Source: Nemertoderma westbladi (taxonomy: Eukaryota; Animalia; Xenacoelomorpha). From it: 64,000 nucleotides of DNA. This document shows, piece by piece, positions 1 through 62,061 of this stretch; position 1 is the first letter of the stretch; each line of letters begins with the position of its first letter. Both the position numbers and the translations under genes were made by a program. The stretch is taken from assembly GCA_032718475.1 (NCBI GenBank), contig JAUCBJ010001113.1:1-64000 (forward strand), given 5' to 3'. A model generated the notes under the pieces. That model was not told the DNA's origin. It did not search any database and saw only the letters and a list, made by a program, of their open reading frames with translations.

Positions 1-3000
1 CCAACCAACCAACCAACCAACCAACCAACCAACCAACCAACCAACCAACCAACCCAACCAACCAAACCAACCAACCAACCAACCAACCAACCAACCAACC
101 AACCAACCACCAACCAACCAACCAAACCAACCAACCAACCAACCAACCAACCAACCAACCAACACAACCAACCAACCAACCCAACCAACCAACCAACCAA
201 CCAACCAACCAACCAACCAACCAACCACCAACCAACCAACCAACCAACCAACCAACCAACCAACCACAACCAACCAACCAACCAACAACCAACCAACCAA
301 CCAACCAACCAACCAACCAACCAACCAACCAACCAACCAACCAACCAACCAACCAACCAACCAACCAACCAACCAACCAACCAACCAACCAACCCAACCA
401 ACCACAACCAACCAACCAACCAACCAACCAACCAACCAACCACCAACCAACCAACCAACCAACCAACCAACCACCAACCAACCAACCAACCAAACCAACC
501 AACCAACCAACCAACCAACCAACCAACCAACCAACCAACCAACCAACCAACCAACCAACCAACCAACCAACCAACCAACCAACCACCAACCAACCAACCA
601 ACCCAACCAACCAACCAACCAACCAACCAACCAACCAACCACCAACCAACCAACCAACCAACCAACCAACCAACCAACCAACCAACCAACCAACCAACCA
701 ACCACCAACCGAACCAACCAACCAACCAACCAACCAACCAACCAACCAACCAACCAACCAACCAACCAACCAACCAACCAACCAACCAACCAACCAACCA
801 ACCAACCAACCAACCAACCAACCAACCACCAACCAACCAACCAACCAACCACCAACCAACCAACCACCCAACCAACCAACCAACCAACCAACCAACCAAC
901 CAACCAACCAACCAACCAACCAACCAACCAACCAACCAACCAACCAACCAACCAACCAACCAACCAACCAACCAACCCAACCAACCAACCAACCAACCAC
1001 CAACCAACCAACCAACCAACCAAACCAACCAACCAACCAACCAACCAACCAACCAACCAACCAACCAACCAACCAACCAACCAACCAACCAACCAACCAA
1101 CCAACCAACCACCAACCAACCAACCAACCAACCAACCAACCAACCAACCAACCAACCACCAACCAACCAACCAACCAACCAACCAACCAACCAACCAAAC
1201 CAACCAACCAACCAACCACCAACCAACCAACCAACCAACCAACCACCAACCAACCAACCAACCAACCAACCAACCAACCAACCACACCAACCAACCAACC
1301 AACCAACCAACCAACCAACCAACCAACCAACCAACCAACCAACCAACAACCAACCAACCAACCAACCAACCAACCCCCAACCACCAACCAACCAACCAAC
1401 AACCAACACCACCAACCAACCAACCAACCAACCAACCAACCAACCAACCAACCACCAACCAACCAACCAACCAACCAACCAACCAACCAACCAACCAACC
1501 AACCCAACCAACCAACCAACCAACCAACCAACCAACCAACCAACCAACCACCAACCAACCACCAACCAACCAACCAACCAACCACCAACCAACCAACCAA
1601 CCAACCAACCAACCAACCAACCAACCAACCAACCAACCAAACCCAACCAACCAACCAACCAACCAACCAACCAACCAACCAACCAACCAACCAACCAACC
1701 AACCAACCAACCACAACCAACCAACCAACCAACCAACCAACCAACCAACCAACCAACCAACCACCAACCAACCAACCAACCAACCAACCAACCAACCAAC
1801 CAACCAACCAACCAACCAACCAACCAACCAACCCAACCAACCAACCAACCAACCAACCAACCAACCAACCAACCAACCAACCAACCAACCAACCAACCAA
1901 CCAACCAACCAACCAACCAACCAACCAACCAACCAACCAACCAACCAACCAACCCAACCAACCAACCAACCAACCAACCAACCAACCAACCAACCAACCA
2001 ACCAACCAACCAACCAACCAACCAACCAACCAACCAACCAACCAACCAACCAACCAACAACCAACCAACCAACCAACCAACCAACCACCAACCAACCAAC
2101 CAACCAACCAACCACCAACCAACCAACCAACCACCAACCAACCAACCACCAACCAACCAACCAACCAACCAACCAACCAACCAACCAACCAACCAACCCA
2201 ACCAACCAACCAACCAACCAACCAACCAACCAACCAACCAACCACCAACCAACCAACCAACCAACCAACCAACCAACCAACCAACCAACCAACCAACCAA
2301 CCAACCAACCAACCAACCAACCAACCAACCAACCAACCAACCAACCAACCAACCAACCAACCAACCAACACCAACCAACCAACCCAACCAACCCAACCAA
2401 ACCAACCAACCAACCAACCAACCACCAACCAACCAACCAACCAACCAACCACCACCAACCAACCAACCAACCAACCAACCAACCAACCACCAACCAACCA
2501 ACCACCAACCAACCAACCAACCAACCAACCAACCAACCAACCCAACCAACCAACCAACCAACCAACCAACCAACCAACCAACCCAACCAACCAACCAACC
2601 AACCAACCAACCAACCCAACCAACCAACCAACCAACCAACCAACCAACCAACCAACCAACCAACCAACCAACCAACCCAACCAACCAACCAACCAACCAA
2701 CCAACCAACCAACCAACCAACCAACCAACCAACCAACCAACCAACCAACCAACCACCAACCAACCAACCAACCAACCAACCAACCAACCAACCAACCAAC
2801 CAACCAACCAACCAACCAACCAACCAACCAACCAACCAACCAACCAACCAACCAACCAACCAACCAACCAACCAACCAACCAACCAACCAACCAACCAAC
2901 CAACCAACCAACCAACCAACCAACCAACCAACCAACCAACCAACCAACCAACCAACCAACCAACCAACCAACCAACCAACCAACCAACCAACCAACCAAC

Positions 3001-6000
3001 CCAACCAACCAACCAACCAACCAACCAACCAACCAACCAACCAACCAACCAACCAACCAACCAACCAACCAACCAACCAACCAACCAACCAACCAACCAA
3101 CCAACCAACCAACCAACCAACCAACCAACCAACCAACCAACCAACCAACCAACCAACCAACCAACCAACCAACCAACCAACCAACCAACCAACCAACCAA
3201 CCAACCAACCAACCAACCAACCAACCAACCAACCAACCAACCAACCAACCAACCAACCAACCAACCAACCAACCAACCAACCAACCAACCAACCAACCAA
3301 CCAACCAACCAACCAACCAACCAACCAACCAACCAACCAACCAACCCAACCAACCAACCAACCAACCAACCAACCAACCAACCAACCAACCAACCAACCA
3401 ACCAACCAACCAACCAACCAACCAACCAACCACCAACCAACCAACCAACCAACCAACCAACCAACCAACCAACCAACCAACCAACCAACCAACCAACCAA
3501 CCAACCAACCAACCAACCAACCAACCAACCAACCAACCAACCAACCAACCAACCAACCAACCAACCACCACCAACCAACCAACCAACCAACCAACCAACC
3601 AACCAACCAACCAACCAACCAACCAACCAACCAACCAACCAACCAACCAACCAACCAACCAACCAACCAACCAACCAACCAACCAACCACCAACCAACCA
3701 ACCAACCAACCAACCAACCAACCAACCAACCAACCAACCAACCAACCAACCAACCAACCAACCAACCAACCAACCAACCAACCAACCAACCAACCAACCA
3801 ACCAACCAACCAACCAACCAACCAACCAACCAACACCAACCAACCAACCAACCAACCAACCAACCAACCAACCAACCAACCAACCAACCAACCAACCAAC
3901 CAACCAACCAACCAACCAACCAACCAACCAACCAACCAACCAACCAACCAACCAACCAACCAACCAACCAACCAACCAACCAACCAACCAACCAACCAAC
4001 CAACCAACCAACCAACCAACCAACCAACCAACCAACCAACCAACCAACCAACCAACCAACCAACCAACCAACCAACCAACCAACCACCAACCAACCAACC
4101 AACCAACCAACCAACCAACCAACCAACCAACCAACCAACCAACCAACCAACCAACCAACCAACCAACCAACCAACCAACCAACCAACCAACCAACCAACC
4201 AACCAACCAACCAACCAACCAACCAACCAACCAACCAACCAACCAACCACCACCAACCAACCAACCAACCAACCAACCAACCAACCAACCAACCAACCAA
4301 CCAACCAACCAACCAACCAACCAACCAACCAACCAACCAACCAACCAACCAACCAACCAACCAACCAACCAACCAACCAACCAACCAACCAACCAACCAA
4401 CCAACCAACCAACCAACCAACCAACCAACCAACCAACCAACCAACCAACCAACCAACCAACCAACCAACCAACCAACCAACCAACCAACCAACCAACCAA
4501 CCACCAACCAACCAACCAACCAACCAACCAACCAACCAACCAACCAACCAACCAACCAACCAACCAACCAACCAACCAACCAACCAACCAACCAACCAAC
4601 CAACCAACCAACCAACCAACCAACCAACCAACCAACCAACCAACCAACCAACCAACCAACCAACCAACCAACCAACCAACCAACCAACCAACCAACCAAC
4701 CAACCAACCAACCAACCAACCAACCAACCAACCAACCAACCAACCAACCAACCAACCAACCAACCAACCAACCAACCAACCAACCAACCAACCAACCAAC
4801 CAACCAACCAACCAACCAACCAACCAACCAACCAACCAACCAACCAACCAACCAACCAACCAACCAACCAACCAACCAACCAACCAACCAACCAACCAAC
4901 CAACCAACCAACCAACCAACCAACCAACCAACCAACCAACCAACCAACCAACCAACCAACCAACCAACCAACCAACCAACCAACCAACCAACCAACCAAC
5001 CAACCAACCAACCAACCAACCAACCAACCAACCAACCAACCAACCAACCAACCAACCAACCAACCAACCAACCAACCAACCAACCAACCAACCAACCAAC
5101 CAACCAACCAACCAACCAACCAACCAACCAACCAACCAACCAACCAACCAACCAACCAACCAACCAACCAACCAACCAACCAACCAACCAACCAACCAAC
5201 CAACCAACCAACCAACCAACCAACCAACCAACCAACCAACCAACCAACCAACCAACCAACCAACCAACCAACCAACCAACCAACCAACCAACCAACCAAC
5301 CAACCAACCAACCAACCAACCAACCAACCAACCAACCAACCAACCAACCAACCAACCAACCAACCAACCAACCAACCAACCAACCAACCAACCAACCAAC
5401 CAACCAACCAACCAACCAACCAACCAACCAACCAACCAACCAACCAACCAACCAACCAACCAACCAACCAACCAACCAACCAACCAACCAACCAACCAAC
5501 CAACCAACCAACCAACCAACCAACCAACCAACCAACCAACCAACCAACCAACCAACCAACCAACCAACCAACCAACCAACCAACCAACCAACCAACCAAC
5601 CAACCAACCAACCAACCAACCAACCAACCAACCAACCAACCAACCAACCAACCAACCAACCAACCAACCAACCAACCAACCAACCAACCAACCAACCAAC
5701 CAACCAACCAACCAACCAACCAACCAACCAACCAACCAACCAACCAACCAACCAACCAACCAACCAACCAACCAACCAACCAACCAACCAACCAACCAAC
5801 CAACCAACCAACCAACCAACCAACCACCAACCAACCAACCAACCAACCAACCAACCAACCAACCAACCAACCAACCAACCAACCAACCAACCAACCAACC
5901 AACCAACCAACCAACCAACCAACCAACCAACCAACCAACCAACCAACCAACCAACCAACCAACCAACCAACCAACCAACCAACCAACCAACCAACCAACC

Positions 6001-7276
6001 AACCAACCAACCAACCAACCAACCAACCAACCAACCAACCAACCAACCAACCAACCAACCAACCAACCAACCAACCAACCAACCAACCAACCAACCAACC
6101 AACCAACCAACCAACCAACCAACCAACCAACCAACCAACCAACCAACCAACCAACCAACCAACCAACCAACCAACCAACCAACCAACCAACCAACCAACC
6201 AACCAACCAACCAACCAACCAACCAACCAACCAACCAACCAACCAACCAACCAACCAACCAACCAACCAACCAACCAACCAACCAACCAACCAACCAACC
6301 AACCAACCAACCAACCAACCAACCAACCAACCAACCAACCAACCAACCAACCAACCAACCAACCAACCAACCAACCAACCAACCAACCAACCAACCAACC
6401 AACCAACCAACCAACCAACCAACCAACCAACCAACCAACCAACCAACCAACCAACCAACCAACCAACCAACCAACCAACCAACCAACCAACCAACCAACC
6501 AACCAACCAACCAACCAACCAACCAACCAACCAACCAACCAACCAACCAACCAACCAACCAACCAACCAACCAACCAACCAACCAACCAACCAACCAACC
6601 AACCAACCAACCAACCAACCAACCAACCAACCAACCAACCAACCAACCAACCAACCAACCAACCAACCAACCAACCAACCAACCAACCAACCAACCAACC
6701 AACCAACCAACCAACCAACCAACCAACCAACCAACCAACCAACCAACCAACCAACCAACCAACCAACCAACCAACCAACCAACCAACCAACCAACCAACC
6801 AACCAACCAACCAACCAACCAACCAACCAACCAACCAACCAACCAACCAACCAACCAACCAACCAACCAACCAACCAACCAACCAACCAACCAACCAACC
6901 AACCAACCAACCAACCAACCAACCAACCAACCAACCAACCAACCAACCAACCAACCAACCAACCAACCAACCAACCAACCAACCAACCAACCAACCAACC
7001 AACCAACCAACCAACCAACCAACCAACCAACCAACCAACCAACCAACCAACCAACCAACCAACCAATCAACCAACCAACCAACCAACCAACCAACCAACC
7101 AACCAACCAACCAACCAACCAACCAACCAACCAACCAACCAACCAATCAACCAACCAACCAACCAACCAACCAACCAACCAACCAACCAACCAACCAACC
7201 AACCAACCAACCAACCAACCAACCAACCAACCAACCAACCAATCAACCAACCAACCAACCAACCAACCAACCAACC
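1..7276 (+). repeat. (AACC)n / (TTGG)n tetranucleotide array, candidate telomere
   Basis: About 1800 units starting at base 1. Frequent 1-nt indels in the first ~4.5 kb, near perfect from 4.5 to 7 kb, AATC variants at 7065, 7145 and 7241 next to the junction. C-rich strand at the 5' end. Confidence 0.97.
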
Positions 7277-9565
7277 GAGTGACCGATGCACAAAATCACC
7301 AGTCTTTACCTACGCCAAGCAGCCCGTGTAGTACCGAGGTTAATTTAACTATAGCGGTATGTATAACAAACACAATTACTGTAGGAACAAACTTGGGGAA
7401 TGAATGTTGCGAATAATCGCATAAACTCTGAATAATAAATATTACGCTACGCGTACAAACTACTCAAACAAAATGCAGACCGAACACTGACAGACTACTA
7501 TCAAGCCTAAACAAACTACGGTATATGCAGACTCCGAAATAATTAGGTAGTATGCGTTCTAACCCAGTAGTACGACTTATTCTTTAGTTGGGGGTTTACC
7601 TTACAGCATTCGCTGCCCCTACTTCCTAACCGTTCTTTATCGGACAGATGATCTACACACGCTGCAATCCGTTCAGACCTAATAACAGCCAGACAACTAT
7701 CCAGCCTACAAATTATCTAAATAAATATTATACGCTACCCGTACAGACTTACACAAACAAAGTACAGACTCAACGATGGCAGACTACTCTCAAGCCTAAC
7801 TAAACTACAGGACATGCAGACTCCGAAATGATTAGGGAGTATGCGCTCTAACCCAGTAGTGCGACTTATTCTTTAGTTGGGGGTTTACCTTACAGCGTTC
7901 GCTGCCCCTACTTCCTAACCGTACTTAATCGGACAGGTGATCTACACACACTGTAATCCGTTCAGACTTAACAGCAATCAGACAACAGCTCAGCCTACAA
8001 ATTGTCTGTACAATCTGATCAGGCTTACACGCCTTCTGTTCAATACTGGCCTACAAACAAATAAAACTTGACAGAAATAAGTAAAAATCTCAATAAAAAA
8101 CCAGGGCTGCAGTCCCTGATTAATTATTAAGGCCTACCGGTATATAACTATCAAAATCGAATAATACTAATGTACTTATACGGGAAGTACCGGTTAGGAC
8201 AGTTAGGCCTACGGACCTACAGAAGTACCGGTTCTGGCAGTTGGACCTACAGACCTACGGCAGTACCGGTTCTGGCAGTTGGGCCTACTGACCTACAGAT
8301 GTACCTTTCAGGTTTACCGGTTGACCGGTACTTTCAACTTTATTGCTTACTGCAATAAAGAAGCTATATCCGTTATTGTTCGCGCTTTCAGACCTTTGGC
8401 AGTTTAACCCGCCAAATTAGGATGTCTTCTAGATAATAAATCGCTTTAGCCTCTAACAAGTATTTGATTCACTACACTAGTTGAAACCAATCTGTGCGCG
8501 ATCATTCACCCGTTGGATATACCCGGGAGATTGATTTCGACAGCTTAATCTTATTGCTATGTAAGCCTAATGTATTATTCGACTGACAGTATTATATAAT
8601 CTCTGACAATATTATTCACCTTCAGGGAATATTAACAGTTCCTTTAGGACGTGGCGCTCTATCTATATAAACAGAGTTATGACTTAAACTACTCACAACG
8701 ATATGGCTTAGTTACAATTCACATATATGGCGCATTCTTTAGGAAATGCTTCGTTATCAGTCTCACTCATACACAATGCTGCACAATACTGCACACTGAT
8801 CTGCCGATCTTCACTGATTTTAGTCACATATAAAAGGAACACGGACCGAATCATGTAGGGTCTATCAAATAACATTAGATTCACTTCAAACCACTCAACA
8901 TAGGTCGCAATCATTTATCTGTAACCCTTCTCTCTTACCTTCGGTATATCAAGAATATTGGGTTTTCGGGGTTATTTGCCGTTATTCCAAATATAATAAT
9001 TCATCAACCATATTATGAAGAACTGAAAGTAAATAGCAGTATAACAATATAAAGTATGCACAGTGTTACACAGTATGCAGTGTATGCAGTACTGCAGTAT
9101 GCAGTATGCAGATAACGGATATATGTCCTTATAATTAAGCCTACTAGTGTAGGACTAAAAACTGAAAACACGGAGGTGCCAAAAGCCGGTTCTTAGGCTC
9201 TGGGCAAAAACATAACACTGAACTACTGAGTTTCTGTATACACCTCCAACACAGAGACAACAAACGCTCTGATTGGTCAACCTGAACAACGAGAGAACAA
9301 AGAAACAAAGAAACGTCGACGTGGCAATATCAGCTGCTAGCCGTCGTCATGGTAGCGACACTGTTTTCAAGAGTATCGAGCTTTTACGTCACGGAATTAC
9401 GGATTATGTCCTCTAAAGTACAAATACAGAAGAAATAGCTTTTATGTCCGCTAAAACACCAGTACAGCAAGGACACGGCCTTTTTATGCCTGGTAAACCA
9501 ACCACAGAGTATTTTACGGGAAAAATAAGGAAAAATAACCGGACAATTCAGCAAAAGCTTTTACA
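7277..9565 (-). mobile_element. Truncated, diverged copy of the BEL/Pao element (5' LTR 8377-9565 plus ~1.1 kb leader), cut by the (AACC)n array
   Basis: Reverse complement aligns to 19789-~21700. Begins TGTAAAAGCTTTTGC, LTR ends GCGCGAACA, and leader homology continues to the repeat junction. Confidence 0.93.
7440..8010. repeat. ~290-bp tandem duplication in the BEL leader
   Basis: Units start TACGCTAC(G/C)CGTACA at ~7443 and ~7731. Only one unit is present in the full-length copy (~21250-21530). Confidence 0.85.
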
Positions 9566-19079: not shown

Positions 19080-19788
19080 GTTTACTCTAAGCATGTAATG
19101 TGATGGGATAATATAATTGTTTTAATGTCAATAAAAATAATAAAAACATTAAAATCTAATTTTTTATATCTCAGTCTGGTGGGCAGGGTTTAGGTTTACA
19201 CCCTCAAACACACACCAACCGGTAGCTAGCCGGCTAGCTAGCTGTTGCATCTGAGTTTAACTACCGGTAGCTGACTTTACACACTGACATATAACAGTGC
19301 TAAACTGCAGAATGACTCCCCTTCTAGACTGACAAAGTACCGCTTTAGCGTTACTAATAATAAAATCAAATAAACTCGACATGTGGTTTGCGAATGTGGC
19401 ATTAGAGTGGCCCACCTAACAATAGGCCTACCGGTACTGTAGCACCCTTGTAACAGTATAGTCAGATAGGGCATGCTGGTTCCTTCGATTTAAGGATTAT
19501 TACACTTGAATGCTTCCAATTTTCTGTTTACAACTTTAATTGGTCTAATCTAGATTATTACTAGGCTACTACTGTCGCATAGGTAAGCCTATACGGCTAT
19601 AGTTAACTTTATGTGGGCCTTTCTCGAATGTGGGGCCAATTTGGTTTACAGTTAACCTTTAGAACTCACAGTCAGACGGTTGTGAATAAAACATTAGGCG
19701 CGCCTTCATTCGGTTAGGCATATAGGCCTAATGACTCCTCAACTGAAAGCCGACTAGCTCAGGGATACAATAGGTGTGGCTAGGTAGC

Positions 19789-20971
19789 TGTAAAGGCTTT
19801 TGCGGAATTAGCTAGTCATTTTCCCCACAAAGTACTCTGTAGGTGTTTTAGCGGAAATAAAAAGCCGTTTCCTTACTGTACCGGTGTTTTAGTGGACATA
19901 AAAAGCCATTTCTTCTGTATGTGTACTTTAGCGGACATAACTGGCGATTTTGTGTCGCAGTGCGCCAGGGTGCTCTTGAATCAGTGTGGTTCCAATGACG
20001 GCATCTGTCGGCTGATGTGTCCACGTGTAACTTTTTCTTTGTTCTTTGTTCGGTTGGCCAATCAGAGCGATTTTCATTTTATTTGTACAGAAACCTCCGG
20101 GAAATCGCGCAATGTATTCTGGTCTTTGTTTACCTTTTTTCCTAAGCCTAGAACATCGGCTGTGGAATTATTCTGTGTTTCAGACTTTAGCCAAACATTA
20201 GAATGGCTTTGATTATAGAAACGTATAACTGTTATCAACTCCACTCAGTCTGCCATACCTGGCATACCAGACTCGCCGTACCTTTCACCGCATTATTTTA
20301 CTGCTATTTACTGTTGGTTATTAATTGTATCAGTTGATGGAATATAATATTTGGAGAATATCGATAAATAATCAGAAACCCCAATCTTCTTGATATACTG
20401 AAGGTTAGAGAGACCGGTTACATATAGCAATTGCGACTTACATTAAAGTGGTTTTGGAGTGAATTTAATGCTATTTCATAGGCCCTACAGGTGTCAGTTG
20501 CTGTTCTCTTTATATGTGACTAAAATTAGTGAAGGTCGGCAGATCGGTGTGCAGCATTGTGCAGTAGTGTGCATGACTGTGACAGATAACAAAGCATCTC
20601 CTAAAGAATGCACTTTATACGTGAATCAATAGCCATCCTGTTGTGTTTAGTGTAAGTCATAACTCTGTTTACATACTTAGAGCGCCACGTCCTAAAGGAA
20701 CTGTTAATATTTCCCGAAAGTGAATAATATTTGTCAGAGATTATATATTAACGATCAATCGAATAATACAGTAGGCCTACACCGCAATAAGGTCAGAGCT
20801 TCCGAATCCAGTCTCCCGGGTAAATCCAGCGGGTGAATGGTCGCGCATAGGCTGGCTTCGGCTAATGTAGTTTAAGTGTATCAAATACTTGTCATAGGCT
20901 AAAGTCGATTTATAACCTAGAGACACCTAAATTTGGCAGGTTAAACTGCTAAAGGTCTAAAAGCGCGAACA
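19789..20971 (+). repeat. 5' LTR (1183 bp)
   Basis: TGTAAAGGC...GCGCGAACA. Roughly 98% identical to the 3' LTR by eye. CCAAT box near 20058. Confidence 0.96.
20224..20235 (+). promoter_or_regulatory. Putative transcript 5' end / self-primer (TATAACTGTTAT)
   Basis: Exact reverse complement of the 12 nt following the LTR. The homologous site in the second copy is 9112-9123. Confidence 0.7.
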
Positions 20972-20983
20972 ATAACAGTTATA
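20972..20983 (+). promoter_or_regulatory. Non-tRNA primer-binding site (ATAACAGTTATA)
   Basis: Immediately follows the LTR-terminal CA, has no TGG, and is complementary to 20224-20235. Confidence 0.75.
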
Positions 20984-22496
20984 GCTTCTGTATTGCAACG
21001 TAGGCAATAAAGCTGAAGTACCGGTCGACTGATAACCAGTAGGCCTGACTGCCTAACCACCCGAACCGGTACTTACAGCAGTATAGGTACATCAGTATTA
21101 TTCGATTTTGATAATTATATACCGGTAGGTCTTGATATTTAATCAGGGAGGGCCCGCCCTGGTTTTTTATTGGGATTTTACTTATTTCTGTCAGTTTTAT
21201 TTATATGTAAGTTAATATTGAGCAGAAGGCGTGTAAGCCTGCTCAGATTGTACAGATAATTTGTAGGCTGGACTGTTGTCTGACTGTTGTTAAGTCTGAA
21301 GAGATTGCAGTGTGTGTAGAGTGTATGTCCGATAAAGTACTAGTTAGGAACGTGGGGGCTTCCAGTGCTGTAAGGTAAATCCCCCCCCCCCCCCCGAAAG
21401 AATAAGTCGTACTACTCGGTTAGAACGCATACTAACTAACCATTTCGGAGTCTGCATGTGCTGTGGTTTATTTAGGCTTGATAGTACTCTGCCAGCGTTT
21501 GGTCTGTATTTTTGTTTATATGTGTTTGTGTGTATTTTTATTATTCAGAGTTTATGCGATTATTCGCAACATTCAAAACCCCAAGTTTATTCCTACAGTA
21601 ATTGTGCTTGTTATACATACCGTTATAGTTAAATTAACCCCGGTACTACATCAGGGCTGTTTGGCGTATGTAAAGACTGGTGATTTTATGCTCTAGTCAT
21701 TCCAGCAGATACCGTGGTTCTTTTAGCTGTACAAGTATTTTTAACTGCTGGTTATTTGTTGTATAAGTACTTGTACCTAATTTAGGGTTTAGTGTACAGT
21801 GCTTTCCGAAGGTAATTAGTGTGTAGGCAGTCTATTTGTGTTGTAAAGTGGTTAATAGGCACGTTGGCTCTGGTAGGCCGCGGTAATTAACTTCTAGGTA
21901 GGAACACTCCGTGTACATAACGTAGTACTTATAGCGCTACGGCTATAAGTCGTCAGACGGTGGTATTTTTCCTATCTGGACAACGCAATATATTTACTAC
22001 TGCTTTATTACTTTCAAATACCATAGTATCCTGTCCGTTGTAATAACCAGAAATTCTAACCCCTTGTTAGGCTGGTTTGTAGACTTCTTGTAAAATTAAC
22101 CCTAAAAATTCGTACGTGTAATTTTTGTGTTTATTTAGAGATTGTAATCTCAACCCGTAATTGTACATAATTTGTAGTAATAAGTAACTTAGGCAAGTAG
22201 AATTATTTGTTTTAGTGTCCAAAACAATAAGTAGCACTTCACTGAGAGCGTACAGCTTCTGTGTAGTGACTCCTTCCCAGAAATAATAACATTTATTTCA
22301 AACATTGACAAAAACCCATTATACGGGTATATATATATTATAAATCAACTCAAACCGATTTATAAAATAGTAGGCCTGTCATACAACAATTAGGTCTTAA
22401 TATCAGTTGGACTACTGCTTAAATAATGGTAATAAAGTCAAGTAAAGTAACTAAGTAACCTTAAAAATTCAGAAATTCAATTATTCTAAAATAATT

Positions 22497-22752: not shown

Positions 22753-24027
22753 AATATATTGTGTAAACATATCACGTTACACTGAGTAACTATATCGGTA
22801 ATTAATTACTAGGCTAACAGTTGATACTGAATTACTAGACTTGCTTTAACTGTAATATAGATATATAATATAAATATATATATATATATATACAACCATC
22901 TGTGATCCAGATAGGAGTGCTGAACGTTTGAGACCGAAGTTCAACTCACCTCCAACTGTAAGAAAGGTCATCCCTCCAGTAGTAGTATCAGACCCTAGGC
23001 TAGTCCAACACCGTAGGTCTATCATAGGCACTCGGGCTCAAGTCAAGCGGGATCAAGAAGCAGCTGTCAAACAGCAGCAACACCCTAGCCGAGAACTTAT
23101 TTCTCAGCGGCCCGATAGCTCCAGTAGTTCAGATACTGTAGAGCTGACACCCGAGCGCGGAGCCAAGATGGCAGATGCGGTTTATTCGGATCCCCTTCTC
23201 ATTCTTCCTGCAGCCGTGCTCACTAGGTTATTGATTGCGGTGGAAGAACACCAAATCGATTGGGCGAGAAGTAAGCGATCGACCAAGGATAGTTATGCGG
23301 GATCCACAAGGGAGGAACTGAAGTCTATTGTCGAGTTGCAATGGAACTTCCCCGGACCCGGACTCCCGTTTGACTTATCAGAAGCTGCCTGGGAAGACAT
23401 ACACAGGATGGGAGTGACAAAAGACAGAAGTGATCCAGCTGTGTGGAAGAGGTCGGCAGCAGGATATGTGCAGGGATTCTTCAGCTCTTTGGAGCGATTA
23501 GAGGAACAACTGTTTCAACAAACCCAAGGACCTCAAGAGCAGGGAGAGCTGCTTTATCAAGTTCGAGAAAGAATTCTAAGAATCAGACTAATCCTATCGG
23601 CCTTTGAGGAAGCTTCAAAAAGAAGACAAGACACGTCGTTGCAAGTTGCCGTAATGACTTGGTTCCAGCGGTGAGTCTCAAGGTTCAAGGAACGGCCCAG
23701 TGGAAATTTCAGCTGGCTGAGCGCTCCACCCATGGAGAATCAACAGACGCTACCTTTTCTCAAGTGGAAAGCGAAGCGACACCAGAGAAACCGCAGAAGA
23801 GGGACGCTATTGACATCTATCTGTCAGACTATCAACGATTTCTAGGTGATGAAGAGTTGAGGAGACGGCTGACTGGACTTCGCCCTAATAGTGAAGGAGC
23901 CAAGTTTGTTCTGGACGCAATAGATGTGGAAATGCTAGCTGCGAACCAAGCTAAATTTGATGAAAGCATCTGCATCGCTAAGGTTCAAGAAGAACAAGTA
24001 AAGAAAAAACGTATAGAAGACAGAAAG

Positions 24028-24300
24028 ACAGCAGCAGCGGCAGTGGCAGCGGCAGAAGCGGAAAGAAAAGCGGCAGAAGTGGAAAGAAAAGCGGCAGAGG
24101 CAGCGGCAGAGGCAAAAGCGGCAGCTGCAGGAGTAGAAGCGGAAAGAAAAGCAGCAGCGGCAGAGGCAAAAGCAGCAGCGGCAGAGGCAAAAGCGGCAGC
24201 TGCAGCAGTAGAAGCGGAAAGAAAAGCGGCAGCGGCAGAAGCGGAAAGAAAAGCGGCCGAAGCGGAAAGAAAGATAGCAGTGGCAGAAGCAGAACGGAGG
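24028..24300 (+). repeat. Coding repeat (AEAERKA/AEAKAAA), coiled coil in Gag
   Basis: GCAGAAGCGGAAAGAAAA-type tandem units. Confidence 0.85.
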
Positions 24301-27300
24301 GCATCTGAAGAGACAGCCCAACTAGAGTTGGAAAATCTTCAAGAGAGGCAAGACAACTTCAATAAACAGATAACATCTAGTCAGATGCAGCTGATAAGTC
24401 GATCCACCCCCAAGCGACAGGGCTTTACATCATCGGATGAAGGCGATACAACAGATCCTGAAGGCGGAGGAAATAGATCTCGTCTCAGCAGGCGTAGAAG
24501 AATGCCCCACCGTCAGAAATTGCCTGATTTGCCCCCAGCTGTGAGAAGGCAACTAGCTAGCACAGACTTAGGTAGTACAGAACCCACAGACCAACTTATT
24601 AGAGTAGAAAGACTCCCTACTATAGTAGATGAACCTGAAATAATTAGGCCTGTTCTCGAAGCCACCCCTTTGGTGATAGAGACACCTGTACTCCCAGAAC
24701 CTACCTCTAAATTCCCTTTGCACAGCACTAAACTACCTGTGCCCAACAGAACCGCCCCTGAGACAGTTCCTGTCCTGGACTCCGAGCGAAATATCGATGA
24801 TTTGTTGCCCGTTGTCCCTCGTCTACCCGCTACTATGTTGGCGGCTCCCGCTTCGGCGGTCGAATGGGTGGATGAGGGGCGGCGGGGGATGAATCTCCTG
24901 CTCGGACAGATGCTGGAGACTGTTCACCAATTCAAGGGAACAGTAAAGGAAAGTAGGTTAGAGTTGCAAGAAGTGCAGCAGAATATCGCGTTAGAACGCG
25001 ATAAATTAGTAAATATACAAAAGGGTATACCACCACCCCCTGTAACAATGTGTCAACCTGTTAGGTCTGAAGTATTTCATGCGCAAGGTGTGGAGCCTAC
25101 ACGCATCTATACTGCTAGTGAAGTAGAAACTCCTATAGTAAACCCTATTAAGGGTAATTATAAACCTGTTGACAATGATATTCCATATAGACCTGATCAT
25201 AATCCGAGAAATTTATATACCGATAACTCGATATTAAATAACACGATGGCCCAAGAAAGTTTTACGCGTCAAATGGCTAGAACCGAAGCCCGTCAAGCGG
25301 TAAAGGTGGGAGAGATCGTCAAGTTCAATGGAGATGAGATGAAATGGTTACCTTTTAATGAATATTACAAAGATAACATACAGAACTCTGTGCTATCTAA
25401 TGGAGAGAAACTGAGATTCCTCATCGAGTGCTTGGAAGGATCTCCCAAGTTAATGGCGTTAAAGTTTATTGGACATCCAGATGGATTAAGACAAGTTTGG
25501 GATACACTAAACATCAGGTATGGTAATAGGAATAACATAGCTAGGTATTTGTATGCAAAATTGGTAGCGCCCCGAAAGTTCATTAGCAGCGGGATTATAG
25601 AGTTTTCCGATGAGATTCAGGAGATCTGTAGACAATTAGATTGGCTAGGTAAGTCTCATGAATATCAGAGTTCTATGGTTATTGGAGCCGTGGCCTCTAC
25701 TTTACCAAAGGGTGGAGTAGGTACATGCTGGGACAAGAAAGTCTTATATATGATGGAACAACAACGAAGACCATGGCTGATCTCATGTCATTCTTGGATG
25801 GAGAGGTAAAGTTACAGCTCCTAAAGCAGTCCAGAGAGAAGGCACCGGAAAATAAGGTAAGTGAAAAACCCGTTTCTAGGAGAAAGGTAACACCAGTGTG
25901 TTATACAGACGATGGCGAAAGCCAGGCTTCTCAAGAAGAGGATAGCGGGAAAGACACTGAAAGATCTTACTATGTCAACAAAGCGTCTAAAGACGTAAGT
26001 AAATTTAAGTCTCGAACCAATGACAGGAGAGAACAAGTAACAAAAACTCCTCCTACATCTCCTAATAGAGTTCACGGAAGAAAGCCCGAGGAAAGAACGA
26101 GAGTGCACAACGTTACCCAAGGTAAGGTGAGTAACATCAAACCAAAATGTGCGCTGTGCGACGGGCCCCACCGTTTAAGTGTGTGTGATAAATTTTTAAA
26201 GAAATCACTACAAGATAGACGTGAAGTCATGTGGGATAAGCGGTTGTGTTATAATTGCCTCAGACAAGGACACAAACGGCGAACCTGTTACTCCGATGCA
26301 AGGTGTGCAAAGTGTGGCGCGAAACATCATATCTTGTTGCACACTGAATTCGAAAGAAACAGCCCGAGTCAGGTAAGTGAGCCCGAACTACATGTCCAAT
26401 TCAGTGATGTGAACGACACGGACCAAAGTTCTGAGATGGAAGGATTCTATATGGATGAATTCTCCGACGAAAACGAATCCTGTTACCTAATAAATACCGC
26501 AGTGTATCGAGCACTTATGTATGAGAAAGAAACCGATAGTGAGCTCCCCCCAACTGCTCCTGACCAACAACCATTTTGGAAAGCACCAACTTCCAATGTA
26601 GGAATCCGAGAATTTCCCGTAGTGCCGTTGAGAGTCCACGGGCCTAAAAAGAGTTATATAGTGAACGCCCTCCTTGACTCCGGCAGCACAGCAACATTCA
26701 TCAACAAAGAACAAGCCGAAGACATCTTTGCTGGACAACCCAAGTTCCGAACTAAGTTAAACATGTCAGGAATTATGCAGGTTTGGAAATCTACAGTAAT
26801 TGCAGATTGCTATGTAGGTGCGTTGTCCACCCCCCAGGATAAACTAGGAGAACACAGTATAAGGTCAGTAAAAATGGTGGCGATAAAGAACTTCGCTACC
26901 AGCCAAGTGGAACCTTATAACTGGGATGAGGACAATTTCACCCAGCAGCTTAAGATACCTAGATTCAACACAGACTACTCTGGAGTGCAAATACTCATCG
27001 GCCAAAATGCGCATGAGGCGCTTGAGACATTGGAGAAACGTCCTGCTCAACCGCAACCACTACAAACCTATGCGGGAAGAACTAGAGTAGGTTGGTACTT
27101 TACTGGCCCTTCCCGTAGAACTCTCATGGAAAGGTTACCCAAAGAACGGGTCTACCAGGTAAGTGAATGGGAAACGGAGAGCAGTGAGGTAGACGACCCA
27201 ACTGAGGGAACACCATACTCCTCAGATAATGACGATATCCACCAACTCTTCGACGAGGAGAATACCATCGACCTCCTTACGGAAAACGAAACTTGGCAAA

Positions 27301-28339
27301 ACCAAGTGAACCTATGTCAACTCATTTGTCCATCAGGACCAGTCGACTATAACGACGAACTGAATGATGTGATAGATCGCTACAACGCGAAGACTCGGGA
27401 TGAACACGCCGTACGATTCTTTACTCAAGAGGCTGTAGAGCCCAATTCCTACGATAAGGCCCTATCGGTAGAAGAAGAAAGAGCCAAGCAGATACAGGAA
27501 ACAACTACACGTTTTCTTAAAGATCGAGGTAGATATGAAATTGGTCTGCCATTTCGAAAGCGAGAACCTATATTTATAAACAACCGACCCTTGGCGGAGA
27601 AAAGAATTGCGCAACTACATCGACGCCTTACGGCAAATGCTTCAGCTAAGGAAATGTACAAAACTCAGTTGAAGAAATTTATTGACAAGGGATATGCGGA
27701 GCGAGTACCGGAAGAAACACCCATAACTGAGAGAACGTACTATCTAACACATCATTACGTTCCCAAACCCGGTAAACCCAACGAAGTCCGGGTAGTATTT
27801 GACGACTCCGCCCTCTACATGGGCCAATCCCTCAATTCCGAGTTGTTGCCAGGACCCAACTTCCTCCAATCCTTGTTGGGAATGCTCTTAAGATTACGAC
27901 AATATTCAATCACCTTTGCCTCAGATATAGAAGGCATGTTCTTACAAGTTAAGGCGCTGGATAGGGATCGAGACAGCCTACGATTTCTGTGGTGGCCTGA
28001 GGGAGACCTCAACCAGAAACCGGTGGAGTACTGGATGACCATCCAGGCTTTTGGGATCATCTCGAGCCCTTCAAACGCCTGCTCAGTAGTGCGCACCACT
28101 GCTGATGACAACCGGGACGCCTTCTCTAAAGAGGTGATCGACAACATCAAACGGGATATATACATGGACGACAATTTAAAGTCCCTCCCATCAGTGGAAG
28201 AAGCCATTGATGTCGCCAAAGGAACGGTAGAGTGCTTGAAAAGAAGAGAGTTTCTGGAATCGATCCCGGTAGAAGACCGAGGAGTTAAAGATCTAGACCT
28301 AATCAAAGACGATCGTTCGGACTAAACGGATTTGTTTAA

Positions 28340-29050
28340 GGGGGGGGTACACCATTTTGGTCCAAAATATGTCGAATTTTTTTTTATGGTAGATTATAAT
28401 GCACCATTGAATGGTGTTTCGAAATCTGAAAACCGCTATTTAATAGTTCTTTTACTTTTCAAGTTATGTAAATTTCCATTTAGGGAATCCTATTGAAATT
28501 ACTATTACTATGTATAATGAAAGGTCGATTATCTCCAAATATTTTTTTCATGAAATTGTCGACTTCAAAACCCTACTACTTCTACAATTTTTGAGTAATT
28601 AGTCTGAAACTTTCTGTGGGTGTCTAGATAGCCACCCTGCATAAAAGTATCAGGCAACTTTTCGAAATTTTTTGTTAATAAAATTTAATACTATTTATAA
28701 AAAACCTAAAAATTAGCATAAATTTGCAGCGCCACCTAGCGGTGCAGAATTATTTTAAAAAAATTTCGCCTGATAGTTATGTTGCCCCATCTTTGATCTA
28801 TCATATAAACAAACTTTCATGTGATTAGGTTCAAAACTGTAAAAGCCTTAGGGTTTTAAGCGCAACCAAGTTTTTTTTATTGTTAACTAGTATTAACTAA
28901 TATTAAATAGCGGAAAAAAAAACTTTTCTGACCTGGCATGTAGAATAGCATCTTAGGCACCTATATGCCAAATTTTAGCCAAAACCAAACAATTTTGAAA
29001 CGCTGACAGTGATAAATCGAAGAGTTGTCCGAAAATGGTGTACCCCCCCC
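28340..29050. mobile_element. Non-autonomous DNA transposon with TTAA TSD and GG termini (Kolobok-like)
   Basis: TTAA-GGGGGGGGTACACCATTTT ... AAAATGGTGTACCCCCCCC-TTAA. Removal restores TKRICLSIL in pol. Confidence 0.9.
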
Positions 29051-32000
29051 TTAAGTATCCTGAGCACTTATTTCGATCCATTGGGATTTATTAGCCCAGT
29101 TATATTGATTGCTCGGAGTTTAGTACAACAACTGTGGCTTGAAAACCACTCATGGGACGATCAACTTAAGGGAGAACTATTAAAGAAGTGGATGAAATAG
29201 GAAGATTCTCTACCGTCCATCGAGAACTTTATAATCTCCCGTTCATATTTTGGTCATGTTCTCCCTACTTATTCCTATCAACTCCATGTGTTTGGAGACG
29301 CCAGCGATATGGGAATAGGTATAGTAGCCTACCTGAGAGTTGAAACTCCGGATGGAATCAAGGTCGCCTTGGTTACCTCTAAGGCCTTGATAAACAACAA
29401 GTTGAAAGTTCCTCGAGCGGAGTTAAAAGCGGCTCTATACGCTACAGCCATCGGCCGGAATGTAACAGAACAGATCGACTATCCACTGGAGAAAACTGTC
29501 TATTGGACCGATGCGTTGCTCGTGTTGGAGTATATAACCAATGAAGTCTGTCAGTTCAGCGTCTTTGTTACCAACAGAGTAGCCATTATACTTAGTCGCA
29601 CGAAGATAGATCAATTGAGACATTGCCCCGGAACGATTAATCCACCCGACATCGCCTCCAGGGGAGCAACTCCACAAGAACTGATAGATACTCCAGACTG
29701 GTTAGGTGGACCCGACTTCCTAAGCAAAGCAGAGGATGAATGGCCTCCTCATCTTACTACGGCGGAGATTAGACAGGCCAAGGGAGCGGAGAAAGTCAAA
29801 CCTAAAACTCGGGCGAGTAAATCGAAGTTATTTAAACCCGTGGTAGATCTGTCTGTACTACACACTTCCGGAGAAGACGCTTTGGATCCGAAACCCACAG
29901 CCACAAATAAGTCTGTTGTGGAAATCAGAGAGAGGGATTGGAAATCTGGAATACCAGACGTCTCGCAAGGACTCTCACCTCTCCTGCAGAGAGCGATACA
30001 TCATTATAGTTCCTGGAATCGGCTCTGTAAGGCCGTTACATATTTAAAGCGATGTTTTCATCATCACTACTCCAGGACGAAGACCACTAGTGATACCGCT
30101 CCACTGACATCTGCGCAGGTCCATGTTGTTAAAGATCTTCCCAAATACAATATATCCGACAGGTTTCTGAAGGAGAAGATCAGTTACCAGGAGCATGAAG
30201 AAACCAATAAGCAGATACTGAGACTCCTGCAATGCTATGAGGATTCCGATAAGTATTTCCTGTTGTTGAGAAATCCACAGATGCGCTTAAGGGATCGTTT
30301 CTCTAGCACAATGATAGATGGGTTAATACGTGTTGGAGGAAGACTAACTAATGCTCCATTATCCTTTGACACTAAGTTTCCCATACTCATTAGAAATCTT
30401 GAAATACAAATCAAGATGATTGTAGATATTCACAGTAAGCTTTATCATGCTGGTAGAGAACGAGTTCTTAGCGAAATTCGAACTCGCTATTATTTTTATA
30501 AACCCCATAGAGCTCTGAACCAAGTTCTTAGGAACTGCATACCCTGTAGGAAAGCATTCAGTAGGCCTTTAACACAGCGAGAGGCAGAATTACCTAGGGA
30601 ACGAGTAAGCTTCTATGAACCACCCTTTACTAATACCGGTGTGGATTTATTTGGCCCTATTGAAGTATATCGTGCTAGGACTATAGTCAAGAGATGGTGT
30701 GTCATCTTTGTCTGTATGACTTGTAGAGCTATCCATCTCGATATGGTGAACGATTTATCTACCAATAGCTTCATATTGAGCTTACGCCGACAGATCTCTC
30801 GCTTTGGAACTAGTAACACGATGAGATCTGATAAGGGAACGAACTTCATTGGTGCCAACAATGAAATCAAGGCTTACATCAAAGATTGGAACCAAAGACA
30901 GGTGGACGATCAGCTAAGGGTAACAGCGTCTAGCTGGACCTTCAACGCCGCCGACGCCCCTTGGTGGGGAGGAAGTTGGGAGAGATTAATCAGGAGCGTG
31001 AAGACAGCATTTCACTTTATAGAGCCGTGCCGCACGTATCTCACCGACGAACTTTTGCGGACGTTAATGGAGGAAATCGCCGCCTATCTCAACGAGAGAC
31101 CGCTTATGCCAGTCTCATCGAGTCCCAATTCCCTGGAAGCGCTAACACCCGCGCACTTCCTACTGAAGAAACATGTAGCCATGCTCCCACGATCGGAAAT
31201 CACGGACGGAGACGAATACTGCCGGCAAACTTGGCAACTTATGCAGTTGTTATCCCGTCGTTTCGCTGACCATTTCGAAAAACATTATCTGCCTACGCTA
31301 CAACTTCGAACTAAGTGGTTTGCGCAGCAAGAAAACGTCAGCGCTGGAGACATGGTCCTTATTGTAGATTCAGATCTTCCACGTAAGCGGTGGCAGACAG
31401 GTCGTATCATCGAGACTCATATCTTGGATGATGGTTTGGTGCGATCGGTAGAACTCGTCGTCATGCGATGTAACTTTAAGAAACCGGGAATTGTCTTCGA
31501 GACACAGCAGCTCAATCGCCCAGTTGGTCGTTTATGTTTACTGGAAAGAGACAGAGAACTCTCCGGAAACTATGGAAGGCAAGATACTCTTCCCACGACC
31601 ACCTCCCTAATCCAACAAACATCTAGGGACTCCCCAACGTGACAGCGTCTGGAGTGGGGGTGTGACTATATTATTTTAAGTTTGTTTTTATTATTTTATA
31701 TTTATGTATGTATTATTATGTAATTTTATTATAATCGTTTTCTTTAATTTTATTTAGTAGAATGTTATTTTAGCGATTATTTAGTAGATTAGTGCAATAT
31801 ATATTAGTCTTATTATTTAATTACTTATATATTATATATTTAGTGCGACAGCGAGAAATAATTCTTTTTCTCTTTCCTTACTGTCCGTATCATATTATAA
31901 ATACGTGACTACAGTAAGATGAAATATCCGTACTTATTAAAGTACAATAAAGCTCCTACTATATTTAAGTATTATTGGTAAGTAGAGTATTGGGAATGCA

Positions 32001-32550: not shown

Positions 32551-33347
32551 AAAATTTATGGGAATAAATTTAAATTCATATCTTTTAATGAATTTGATAA
32601 ATTGTCATTTTTATACAATTTATAATATTCCCAAAATTCCATTAATTAATAGATCATGGGAGCGGAGATTCACCCTATTAAGTATATTAGTGTGCAAGAA
32701 TCTCCAATATATTGTCAATAGCCGATAAAATTCATAAAATCATGTATAAAGAGGAATATTGACAATTAAAGAATTACTATTAAATAGCATCCCAGATCTG
32801 TATGCATGAGAATTACCCTAATTCTACTGCTAGCTTTCCATAATGTCACCATGGCAACAACCACGCTAGAATTAGAAGTGAGTTAAAAGAACAATAGAAA
32901 GCTTGCCCCATTGAATAGCATAAGGAATAAATAGCACACTGCTAGTATCCCAGGATATATAATAATAACGTGGCATTCTGGAAGGCACTTGACTAAAGGA
33001 CAAATGGCCCGAATGTGTGCGGTTTGTGACAGTTGTGTGGAATTTGTGCGTTTATAGGTGAATGTTACTACTAAAGTGTGTTTACAGTAGCGAGTCGCAA
33101 TTGTGAAAGTAGCCCTAACTCTGCAGTAATAACCTGAAGTAAATCTTATCCCTTGGGACGGACAGTGGAGTGACTCGCGCTGGTTGTTATTGTCGTTGTG
33201 CAGCTACTATGTTGGCGATAAGCACAGCGGCGACAGTACATCAGCGCTGAGGATCTTGCGCTGTCCGGGGGCCGTGAGGGGTAGGCAGCGACGCCCGCTA
33301 GCCTAATTATAAACTCATTATAATATTGATAAACTCATATAGCAGCT

Positions 33348-34898
33348 ATGACTGAGTTGATAGAAGATAATCTTGATATCAGGGAGCGATATACTCTACA
33401 TTTACAAGCGTTTGTTGATAGCTTGACATGCGGCGACGCTAGTCCAACTACTACGGAGGACGATGGTCGTTATATCGAACCGCCGATGTCCCAGTAGCAA
33501 CTTACGCGTGAATTGGACTATAGAAAATTCACCGCTTGCTATATGCATCGTAATGGTACATATATGGACTTCTTAACTACTGGCCATCCTATCGATTTAC
33601 ACGATACGGACTATGTCGACACCGAAAGGGAAATGGTACTATTTAAGTTTCCTACCCAGCGGAGTCGGAACGATAAACTGAAAATCGAATGCGAAAATTC
33701 TATTCGAAATCGACCCAAAAGAGAAGATGTTAAAGAACCGGATAAACGCGGTAACTCCAACGTATATTTGGAATTCTTGAGAGAAACATTGTAAAACCAA
33801 ATAAATATCACCCGCGTTTCCCCTACAAGACGTGCGTCTTTGGTATTATTGCGATGAATGCCCAAGACCCAACCAACAAACGGAAAGACATAAACATCCG
33901 CGGAGACGTTGCTTTAAACACGGTTTTACTCGCTATATTTAAGGGAGTTTCGAGCGAAACTTGTTCGATGTATCACCTACGCTCGCTCGACTCAAACGAT
34001 CCTTAAATAAACCTATGATCAGAGTTCCGGAATACTCGGTCGGACCTCCTCATTCCCTAGTTAGACCTCAGACTCTTGATCCTAATAGTATCATGGATAC
34101 TCCCGAACTGTACTCACGGTTCAAAGATCTAGTGTTACCCGAACAGTTAGTCGGTGGCACTCCGGTTGTGGGCTCCCTAGATATTCGCCCATCTTACCTT
34201 GCCGGATTGGGACGCGGACATCTAATATCGCCATTCAACCGCATCATCGTCCCAGTTTAACCCGATACAACCTGTCACCGAGGTGGAGGAGAGAGTTGTA
34301 CGAAACGCGTTGGACACTATTCGTCAAAAGATCGGAAAAGGAACCTACAATTGTTTAGAGATACGTAAATTGCAGCAACTAGTCCAAGCGGTAAACGAAT
34401 TAGCTTTATCTCAGTTTGATCAGGAAATCCAGAATCTATAAGAAGATATCGAACTTGGACGACTCTACTTTCTGCAAGAGTTTGGACAAATGTTTTCAAC
34501 GACAAGCGGAGGAAAATCAGCTCGAGGAGAAGCATATCGATTCCGATAGAGCCCGAGAACGCGAGTTGGAAAGAATCATCAAACCGAGGAAATTTCTCAC
34601 TATACACGGTCCACCTACCGCTCTCGTGCAAATGACCCGTCAGGGACCAGTAAGAGCTGCTGTCTCAAAACGCGCTCTCAAGGTTGTTCGACCTCGTTCC
34701 ACTGAGGTTGATACCGATCAACCAGGTACCTCGACCGGCGGATACACCGACCGTAACCCTAAACCTTCTGATGCAATTGTATTGCACCCTTCACCCAAGG
34801 GTTATAGCCCTCCTAGTAAAGTGGCTCACCCCAAAGAGAAAAGGACTCTTGCTAGCCTCAAAAAACTGCGTAAATGCCGTCCTCGCAAGAAAGACTAA
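33348..34898 (+). pseudogene. Disrupted extra ORF of unknown function between pol and the 3' LTR
   Basis: ATG at 33348. Coding-like composition in AT-rich surroundings, chained ORF pieces 33513-33794, 33961-34260 and 34416-34898, ending ~80 bp before the LTR. Confidence 0.6.
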
Positions 34899-34976
34899 CT
34901 GTTTAGAGTATTTTTATATTTTAGAAACTGTGATTTTTTATATTTTATAGAATTAAATCCCATTTTCTGGGAGCAG

Positions 34977-36164
34977 TGTAAAGGCTTTTGCGGAATTAGC
35001 TAGTCATTTTCCCCGCAAAGTACTCTGTAGGTGTTTTAGCGGACATAAAAAGCCGTTTCCTTACTGTACCGGTGTTTTAGTGGACATAAAAAGCCATTTC
35101 TTCTGTATGTGTACTTTAGCGGGCATAACTGGCGATTTTGTGTCGCAGTGCGCCAGGGTGCTCTTGATGCAGTGTGGTTCCGATGACGGCATCTGTCGGC
35201 TGATGTGTCCACGTGTAACTTTTTCTTTGTTCTTTGTTCGGTTGGCCAATCAGAGCGATTTTCATTTTATTTGTACAGAAACCTCCGGGAAATCGCGCAA
35301 TGCATTCTGGACTTTGTTTACCTTTTTTCCTAAGCCTAGAACATCGGCTGTGGAATTATTCTGTGTTTCAGACTTTAGCCAAACATTAGAACGGCTTTGA
35401 TTATAGAAACATATAACTGTTATCAACTCCTCTCAGTCTGCCATACCTGGCATACCAGACTCGCCGTACCTTTCACCGCATTATTTTACTGCTATTTACT
35501 GTCGGTTATTAATTGTATCAGTTGATGGAATATTGTTATATTTGGAGAATATGGATAAATAATCAGAAAACCCCAATCTTCTTGATATACTGAAGGTTAG
35601 AGAGACCGGTTACATATAGCAATTGCAACTTACATTAAAGTGGTTTTGGAGTGAATTTAATGCTATTTCATAGGCCCTACAGGTGTCAGTTGTTGTTCTC
35701 TTTATATGTGACTAAAATTAGTGAAGGTCGGCAGATCGGTGTGCAGCATTGTGCAGTAGTGTGCATGACTGTGACAGATAACAAAACATCTCCTAAAGAA
35801 TGCACTTTATACGTGAATCAATAGCCATCCTGTTGTGTTTAGTGTAAGTCATAACTCTGTTTACATACTTAGAGCGAAACGTCCTAAAGGAACTGTTAAT
35901 ATTTCCCGAAAGTGAATAATATTTGTCAGAGATTATATATTAACGATCAATCGAATAATACAGTAGGCCTACACCGCAATAAGGTCAGAGCTTCCGAATC
36001 CAGTCTCCCGGGTAAATCCAGCGGGTGAATGGTCGCGCATAGGCTGGCTTCGGCTAATGTAGTTTATGTGTATCAAATACTTGTCATAGGCTAAAGTCGA
36101 TTTATAACCTAGAAGACACCTAAATTTGGCAGGTTAAACTGCTAAAGGTCTAAAAGCGCGAACA
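34977..36164 (+). repeat. 3' LTR (1188 bp)
   Basis: Matches the 5' LTR. Preceded by a short purine-rich GGGAGCAG and followed by TSD GTAGC. Confidence 0.96.
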
Positions 36165-36169
36165 GTAGC

Positions 36170-44206: not shown

Positions 44207-44211
44207 CCACG

Positions 44212-44222
44212 CTCTGCTACCA
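44212..44222 (-). promoter_or_regulatory. Copia PBS for initiator tRNA-Met
   Basis: TGGTAGCAGAG directly after the 5' LTR, complementary to the tRNAiMet 3' end CUCUGCUACCA. Confidence 0.92.
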
Positions 44223-56577: not shown

Positions 56578-56795
56578 GCGGAACGCGAACAGGAAGAACG
56601 AGAACTCCAACTCGAACGCGAACGCGAAGAACGCGAACTCCAACTCGAACGCGAACACGAAGAATGAGAACTCCAACTCGAACGCGAACGTGAAGAACGC
56701 GAACTCCAACTCGAATGCGAACGGGAAGCTAAGGAACGCGAGCAAAGAAGACGCGAACTCCAACTCAAACGCAAGCGCAAGGAGCGCGAACTTGA
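56578..56795 (+). repeat. Coding repeat (ERELQLEREREE)
   Basis: 33-bp units GAACGCGAACTCCAACTCGAACGC. Confidence 0.85.
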
Positions 56796-61996: not shown

Positions 61997-62061
61997 AGAC
62001 CTGTCAGAACAACAGACTTATGTGACTACTAGGTCCGGAAGGGTAAGTTATGACATAAAAC

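Follow-up and report, generated by a model that had tools for sequence, protein, structure and literature searches.

Element A, a BEL/Pao retrotransposon of 16.4 kb in Nemertoderma westbladi (contig JAUCBJ010001113.1, 19789–36164, plus strand), appears to use a segment of its own RNA, and not a tRNA, as primer for its minus-strand DNA, a reading to which we assign a probability of about 80%. The evidence is drawn from the window, that is, the whole stretch of 64,000 nt analyzed (positions 1 to 64,000 of the contig), which also contains a diverged copy of the same element, termed copy B.

Element A is flanked on both sides by a target-site duplication (GTAGC, 19784–19788 and 36165–36169, plus strand), and its LTRs have TG..CA ends, as is usual in Belpaoviridae. 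The 5′ LTR (19789–20971) measures 1183 nt and the 3′ LTR (34977–36164) 1188 nt, with 20 substitutions and 5 gap columns between them over 1188. A short purine tract (34969–34976) adjoins the 3′ LTR. The coding part, on the plus strand, comprises a 266-codon frame without a Pfam family (22874–23674), a gag-like frame with DUF1759 (23608–25809, E 1.6e-11), a segment with zinc knuckles, an aspartic protease motif and the reverse transcriptase (RT) with its YMDD box (25662–28325), and an RNase H-integrase frame (29201–31642) with Peptidase_A17, Integrase_H2C2 and DUF5641. These Pfam domains are all above their cut-offs and in the expected order, and the gene order gag, PR, RT, RH, IN is that of Belpaoviridae. 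Over most of its length the RT is at most 44% identical to BEL/Pao proteins. Among its matches, 40 of 43 carry the BEL-specific PF05380 or PF03564, and all 67 matches of the RH-IN part carry PF05380 or PF18701 with an identity of 37% or less, so that no close relative is on record. A sequence search of the RT against the PDB gave no significant match. The BEL/Pao identity proposed in the initial annotation is therefore confirmed by DUF1759, Peptidase_A17, DUF5641 and the RT matches.

Element A is a broken copy, with split frames and a 0.7-kb AT-rich insertion interrupting pol (28342–29048). This insertion has 17-nt terminal inverted repeats which begin with a G run, and it is preceded by TTAA. 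The gag contains an Ala/Glu/Arg-rich tandem repeat, likely a coiled coil (23985–24340). Between the integrase and the 3′ LTR, a GC-richer region (33130–34900, plus strand) holds short broken frame pieces with no Pfam match, and may be the decayed remnant of an extra (env-like) gene.

According to the ICTV profile (PMC8742986), Belpaoviridae are 4.2–10 kb long and have a PBS of 18 nt to which host tRNA-Arg or tRNA-Gly binds, in agreement with the earlier statement that BEL/Pao elements are generally described as tRNA-primed. Element A shares with this profile an LTR length within 0.2–1.2 kb, a gag followed by PR-RT-RH-IN, the BEL-specific Pfam domains and the purine tract. It differs in its length (16.4 kb including the insertion) and in its PBS, as judged by the absence of TGG within 188 nt of the LTR. 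Element A is thus BEL/Pao by its proteins and departs from the ICTV profile on the PBS.

Copy B is located on the minus strand. Its 5′ LTR (9565 to 8377) is 1189 nt long and shows ~75% identity to that of element A. The leader that follows (7288–8364) is homologous to about 20984–21690 and contains a 289-nt tandem duplication (7434–8007). It is ended by a low-complexity satellite of 7.3 kb with an (ACCA)n-based unit (1–7280), which truncates copy B. A second BEL/Pao element is found at 55583–63400, with an RT ~42–44% identical to that of element A and sister to it in the RT tree. No recognizable LTR was detected in this element, and it therefore offers no control for PBS pairing. It has a Glu/Arg repeat (56548–56800) similar to the gag repeat of element A, and a fragment of a different element with an RT interrupts it at 62057–63093; the repeat shared by 48155 and 62057 is part of such a different element. 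A Ty1/copia element on the minus strand (39407–44464) has 242-nt LTRs with 99.6% identity; its PBS, adjoining the LTR, is of the ordinary TGG type.

The PBS of element A, ATAACAGTTATA (20972–20983, plus strand), is flush with the end of the 5′ LTR, with neither a spacer nor a TGG, and this sequence occurs only once on the plus strand (20972). Its exact complement, the candidate self-primer, lies within the LTR at 20224–20235 (LTR nt 436–447) and is repeated in the 3′ LTR at 35412–35423. In copy B, the PBS is ATAACGGATATA (8365–8376, minus strand) and its exact complement is located at 9112–9123 (LTR nt 443). The first TGG 3′ of the LTR appears only at offset 188 in A and 273 in B. Two pairs differ between the copies and both changes are compensatory (A-T to T-A and T-A to C-G), so that the 12/12 pairing is kept. 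The chance of both changes being compensatory is P 0.0026 in a simulation given two changes per 12-mer, with only two variants compared. The surroundings of the LTR site are strongly diverged, with an identity of 13/24 in the 24 nt before it and 16/40 in the 40 nt after it. The initial annotation had described this covariation amid diverged sequence and the lack of a tRNA-type PBS; both descriptions stand, and its coordinates for the LTRs, the PBSs and their complements in the two copies are all correct.

Several observations show how far such a pairing could be fortuitous. Dinucleotide shuffles of the LTR produced a PBS match of at least 12 nt in 2 out of 5000 cases for A and 3 out of 5000 for B. 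Cross-matches are poor, that is, 8 nt for the PBS of A in the LTR of B and 5 nt for the PBS of B in the LTR of A. Within 20200–21030, the 12-mer pair is the sole perfect inverted match of at least 10 nt. Inverted matches of 12 nt also arise by chance (5 of the 13994 internal 12-mers of element A have a complement in the LTR, and the window, satellite excluded, holds 15 inverted matches of at least 12 nt at a spacing of 100–1500 nt), and for this reason position and covariation outweigh the length of the match. Past the 12-mer, A and B each allow 7 more bp of duplex, in registers that differ between them, and this extension was left out of the count. A palindromic dimerisation site was considered for the nearly palindromic 12-mer of A and was rejected because copy B breaks the palindrome.

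The family of element A is abundant, with 8436, 2514, 59, and 109 contigs of four sequencing runs covering 911 nt. These contigs lack the length needed to connect the PBS with the LTR site, and the covariation rests on copies A and B. A pattern scan of metagenome, genome, and viral contigs found no further copies. Among the 40 variants listed out of 276, with rarer variants outside this scope, none falls within 20224–20235 or 20972–20983. In a separate survey of a 63-nt stretch, in which only the central position 20979 was listed (the other positions probably being too close to the ends of the stretch), the B-type letter at PBS position 8 (T>A) made up 75%, 70%, and 76% of the contig depth (36, 27, and 21 contigs; three runs, two samples), with no contig from X5. 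Both letters are therefore common in the runs, and the PBS sequence is not fixed at this position.

Upstream of the candidate primer, by ~165 nt, a motif which we take to be CCAAT-box-like (20058–20063, plus strand) is kept in A and B. The lack of a TATA box at ~30 nt upstream of 20224 was counted against self-priming; the candidate primer itself begins with TATA. Downstream of it, a candidate splice-donor-like site is kept in both copies (GTTAGA at 20404–20409 in A and GTAAGA at 8933–8938 in B), followed by conserved YAG acceptor candidates at 20529, 20680, and 20737. The first coding ATG (23168) is preceded by 15 further ATGs from 20224 onwards. Taken together with the donor-like site and the YAG candidates, they make a spliced mRNA from element A plausible. 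A splice-junction primer was also sought in A and B, and neither copy has a junction complement of at least 10 nt.

The folding of the LTR end and leader predicts two sets of helices around the PBS. The first set, similar to a U5-IR, lies just upstream of the PBS and pairs 20841–20846 with 20963–20968 and 20848–20853 with 20954–20959, the latter helix with one compensatory and two G-U-type changes. The second set joins U5 to the leader, pairing 20775–20780 with 21000–21005 (one compensatory change) and 20784–20789 with 20991–20996. A terminal U5 hairpin of 8 pairs is predicted at 20932–20953, with two G-U swaps between A and B, and an outer U5-leader stem (20757–20769 with 21095–21107) has 13 nt in A, of which 11 pairs are kept in B. 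Folds in which the PBS was held unpaired gave the same helix core in both copies. In unconstrained folds, the probability of the PBS being unpaired was 0.76 in A and 0.66 in B against regional means of 0.38 and 0.34, and only 7 of 380 windows (A) and 14 of 450 (B) were more open. These helices are thus predicted to leave the PBS mostly single-stranded, in a topology like that of the Tf1 pretzel.

Comparison of the two copies gives a mixed picture of this fold. For 39 helix pairs, chosen after both folds had been seen, 32 are unchanged, four have one-sided and three two-sided changes, and none is broken. In the unbiased test, the fold of A placed on B had 8 of 81 pairs broken against 16.4 expected (P 0.0006) and five two-sided changes (P 0.023), of which three remain among the 64 confident pairs (P 0.18). 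The fold of B placed on A is unsupported: 20 of its 83 pairs break, where 17.0 would be expected (P 0.92), so that the covariation supports the leader fold in one direction only. Nested folding from 20224 with a short leader gave the primer:PBS duplex a probability near 1 in B and 0 in A, and with a longer leader 0 in both. The duplex crosses the U5-leader helices and nested folding is unable to hold both; as a pseudoknot, a value of 0 is expected for it, which gives no positive evidence.

Further BEL elements were obtained through an RT alignment, which yielded 12 loci (L001–L012) in host-like contigs inside GTDB prokaryote genomes or bins, probably host DNA binned with symbionts. The same alignment gave no relatives of element A among viral contigs. 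The LTR end could be placed in six of the 12 loci, in L006 only approximately since the contig end cuts its 3′ LTR. Four of these six (L004, L005, L006, and L008) have a self-complementary PBS of 11 nt at an offset of 0–2, which complements, with 3 + 8 nt, the joint that splicing within the LTR would form from a canonical donor, GT(A/G)AG, and a YAG acceptor. The regions concerned are L004:1000–1782, L005:1000–1874, L006:1563–3215, and L008:1483–1859. None of 300 shuffled PBSs did as well in each of L004, L005, and L008, L006 being outside this test. The four PBSs are all different, each one matches its own LTR, and none shares ATAAC. Between L004 and L005 the last three exon bases are different, with matching changes in the PBSs. 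As for the remaining two, L012 (4290–4700) has ATAAC right after an LTR ending in CG, a 12-nt splice-junction complement at offset 8 and a split LTR complement of 5 nt and ~9 nt, ~18 nt apart, and L011 has a TGG at offset 4 and no self-complement.

The RT tree (a quick IQ-TREE of 81 BEL rows, drawn by midpoint with no outgroup or bootstrap and leaving out L010 and L011) places element A in a group of 46 rows (SH-aLRT 95) inside a group of 52 (SH-aLRT 100). The group of 46 holds the four loci with splice-joint PBSs and named matches from marine invertebrates; the named insect matches fall outside. The primer type is established for only five or six of these 46 rows. The four loci resemble element A in their RT clade, in the lack of a tRNA PBS and in a PBS complementary to LTR-derived RNA. 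They differ in that their primer consists of 3 nt of one exon and 8 nt of the next, close to the LTR's 3′ end, whereas that of element A is formed by 12 contiguous nt.

In the mechanism that we propose, the full-length RNA of element A would start at or upstream of 20224, and the U5-IR and U5-leader helices, as predicted by folding, would close a multiloop with the PBS mostly single-stranded. Nucleotides 20224–20235 would then pair with the PBS ~750 nt downstream, forming a pseudoknot across the U5-leader helices, as the complementarity and its covariation suggest. By analogy to Tf1, the RT/RNase H would cut after 20235 and the freed 3′ end would be extended into U5. Plus-strand synthesis would finally copy the retained primer into a new PBS; such copying couples the PBS with the LTR site and would explain the compensatory changes. 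The span between primer and PBS is long and was counted against self-priming. The transcription start at about 20224 put forward earlier is compatible with this mechanism but not strictly required by it, since the self-primers of the BEL relatives are internal to the transcript and a start further upstream would also fit.

The initial annotation had inferred self-priming, acquired either convergently or by LTR capture. The first part is retained here, but capture is disfavored because self-complementary PBSs, with other sequences, are present in four more BEL elements of this RT clade. Self-priming is probably a trait of a wider BEL clade, and not captured from Tf1/sushi elements. In its full extent, our reading would be that a large BEL/Pao clade, mostly of marine invertebrates, swapped tRNA priming for self-priming independently of Tf1/sushi and in two forms: a contiguous primer which converged on the pretzel fold and ATAAC, as in element A, and a primer assembled by host splicing, as in the four relatives. 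We consider this scenario slightly better than an even bet.

An unlikely alternative is that a host RNA primes the element, such as half of a tRNA cleaved close to its anticodon loop, the LTR site being a co-evolving anti-PBS switch that masks the PBS. The A-type complement can indeed be read, in a pattern which we presume to be of this kind, as five stem bases followed by an Asn-like anticodon loop. tRNAs nearly always have U33, but the B-type sequence has C at this would-be position, and two PBS variants would require two matching host RNAs. Half-tRNA primers exist in Ty1/copia (PMC6317226, in its available part) and the ICTV profile (PMC8742986) gives tRNA priming for Belpaoviridae. On the contrary, the element contains no tRNA-like sequence (ARAGORN, 0 genes; Rfam, no tRNA match at E ≤ 1), and the four BEL relatives have four different PBSs, each fitting its own LTR.

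Even less probable is a purely structural role of the duplex, as a leader helix for packaging, splicing, or translation control, with another primer in use. The leader does have other conserved long-range stems, including the 13-nt stem 20757/21095, and U5-IR-like helices reportedly also occur in tRNA-primed retroviruses, as is said to follow from work by Lin and Levin in 1998. Nevertheless, in both A and B the end of the duplex coincides exactly with the first base after the LTR, which is where the 3′ end of a primer is required, and no alternative primer site is present. It is very improbable, and the least likely of the three alternatives, that the LTR site is a promoter element of the DNA (a TATA-like or Myb-like motif), upstream of the start and hence absent from the RNA, with a match that is accidental or stems from an old inverted duplication. 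The site begins with TATA and the A-type 12-mer is nearly palindromic; a TATA-like word (20214) and the initiator-like TCAGTC (20245) of A are spaced as in a core promoter. However, B lacks TCAGTC at the corresponding place, C makes up 81% of X1 depth at 20214, and positions 20245, 20246, and 20248 are changed in one X5 contig. Those words of A, which would put the start 3′ of the LTR site, are thus kept neither in B nor in most family contigs. Moreover, the two compensatory changes are not explained by a motif or a palindrome, and the palindrome is broken in B. Self-priming by the LTR segment would account for both changes.

To our knowledge, self-priming has been demonstrated experimentally only in a yeast element unrelated to BEL/Pao. 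In Tf1, the RNA pairs with the PBS through its first 11 bases, and the RNase H cut falls between bases 11 and 12 (PMC7175516, available part). Its PBS begins with ATAAC, as the initial annotation had stated, and ~50% of its cDNA retains the copied PBS (both from the available part of PMC11042837), the latter fitting the copying of the primer into a new PBS in element A. The Tf1 pretzel consists of a central primer:PBS duplex and two more duplexes, in which PBS-adjacent sequence pairs with the LTR downstream of the primer (S. osmophilus preprint 10.1101/2022.12.06.519325, in part). Beyond Tf1, the accessible text of PMC6317226 gives self-priming for the Tf1/sushi group, for Tcn1 (Ty3/gypsy) and for TAR/Houba/Osr-1 (Ty1/copia), predicted in Tcn1 and TAR/Houba/Osr-1 from an LTR-PBS complementarity of at least 10 nt. 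The available main text of the BEL/Pao survey PMC3118150 makes no mention of a primer, PBS, tRNA, or priming, and in the available parts of PMC4600332, PMC6934838, PMC3601003, PMC5443660, and PMC5341516 self-priming is given only for Tf1-type or chromovirus elements. No published self-priming BEL/Pao was found in the sources accessible to our literature search, whose scope excluded most subscription journals and Repbase.

If correct, the present reading would add the third superfamily of LTR retrotransposons to those with tRNA-independent priming, in conflict with the ICTV description of the family. That a fungal gypsy and an animal BEL element have this fold and the first five PBS letters in common would suggest that primer making by RT/RNase H is under a shared constraint. 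The case also bears on which of self-priming and tRNA priming is the older, a question taken up in the available part of PMC3601003, and annotation pipelines demanding a tRNA PBS would overlook or downgrade such elements.

Compared with the known systems, element A probably works like Tf1. As in Tf1 and Tf2 of S. pombe, Tj1 of S. japonicus and the Tf1/sushi group, the PBS adjoining its LTR complements 11–12 nt of that same LTR. The two flanking duplexes of the Tf1 pretzel are predicted in A and B too, with covariation supporting them in one direction only, and the ATAAC start of the PBS is common to Tf1 and element A, either by chance or by constraint. Element A is not a member of the group: Tf1/sushi elements are Ty3/gypsy chromoviruses with a chromodomain, whereas element A, of metazoan BEL type, has BEL/Pao proteins and no chromodomain match. 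It also differs in the distance of ~750 nt between primer and PBS, in an LTR of 1.18 kb, and its priming is read from sequence alone, whereas that of Tf1 is experimentally shown. The complementarity of at least 10 nt used for the plant TAR/Houba/Osr-1 and for Tcn1 is found in element A as well, in another superfamily and other hosts; for those elements the available part of PMC6317226 has no covariation or pretzel test. Self-priming is already known in Ty3/gypsy and predicted in Ty1/copia; the predicted U5-IR and U5-leader helices around the PBS are what the present analysis adds.
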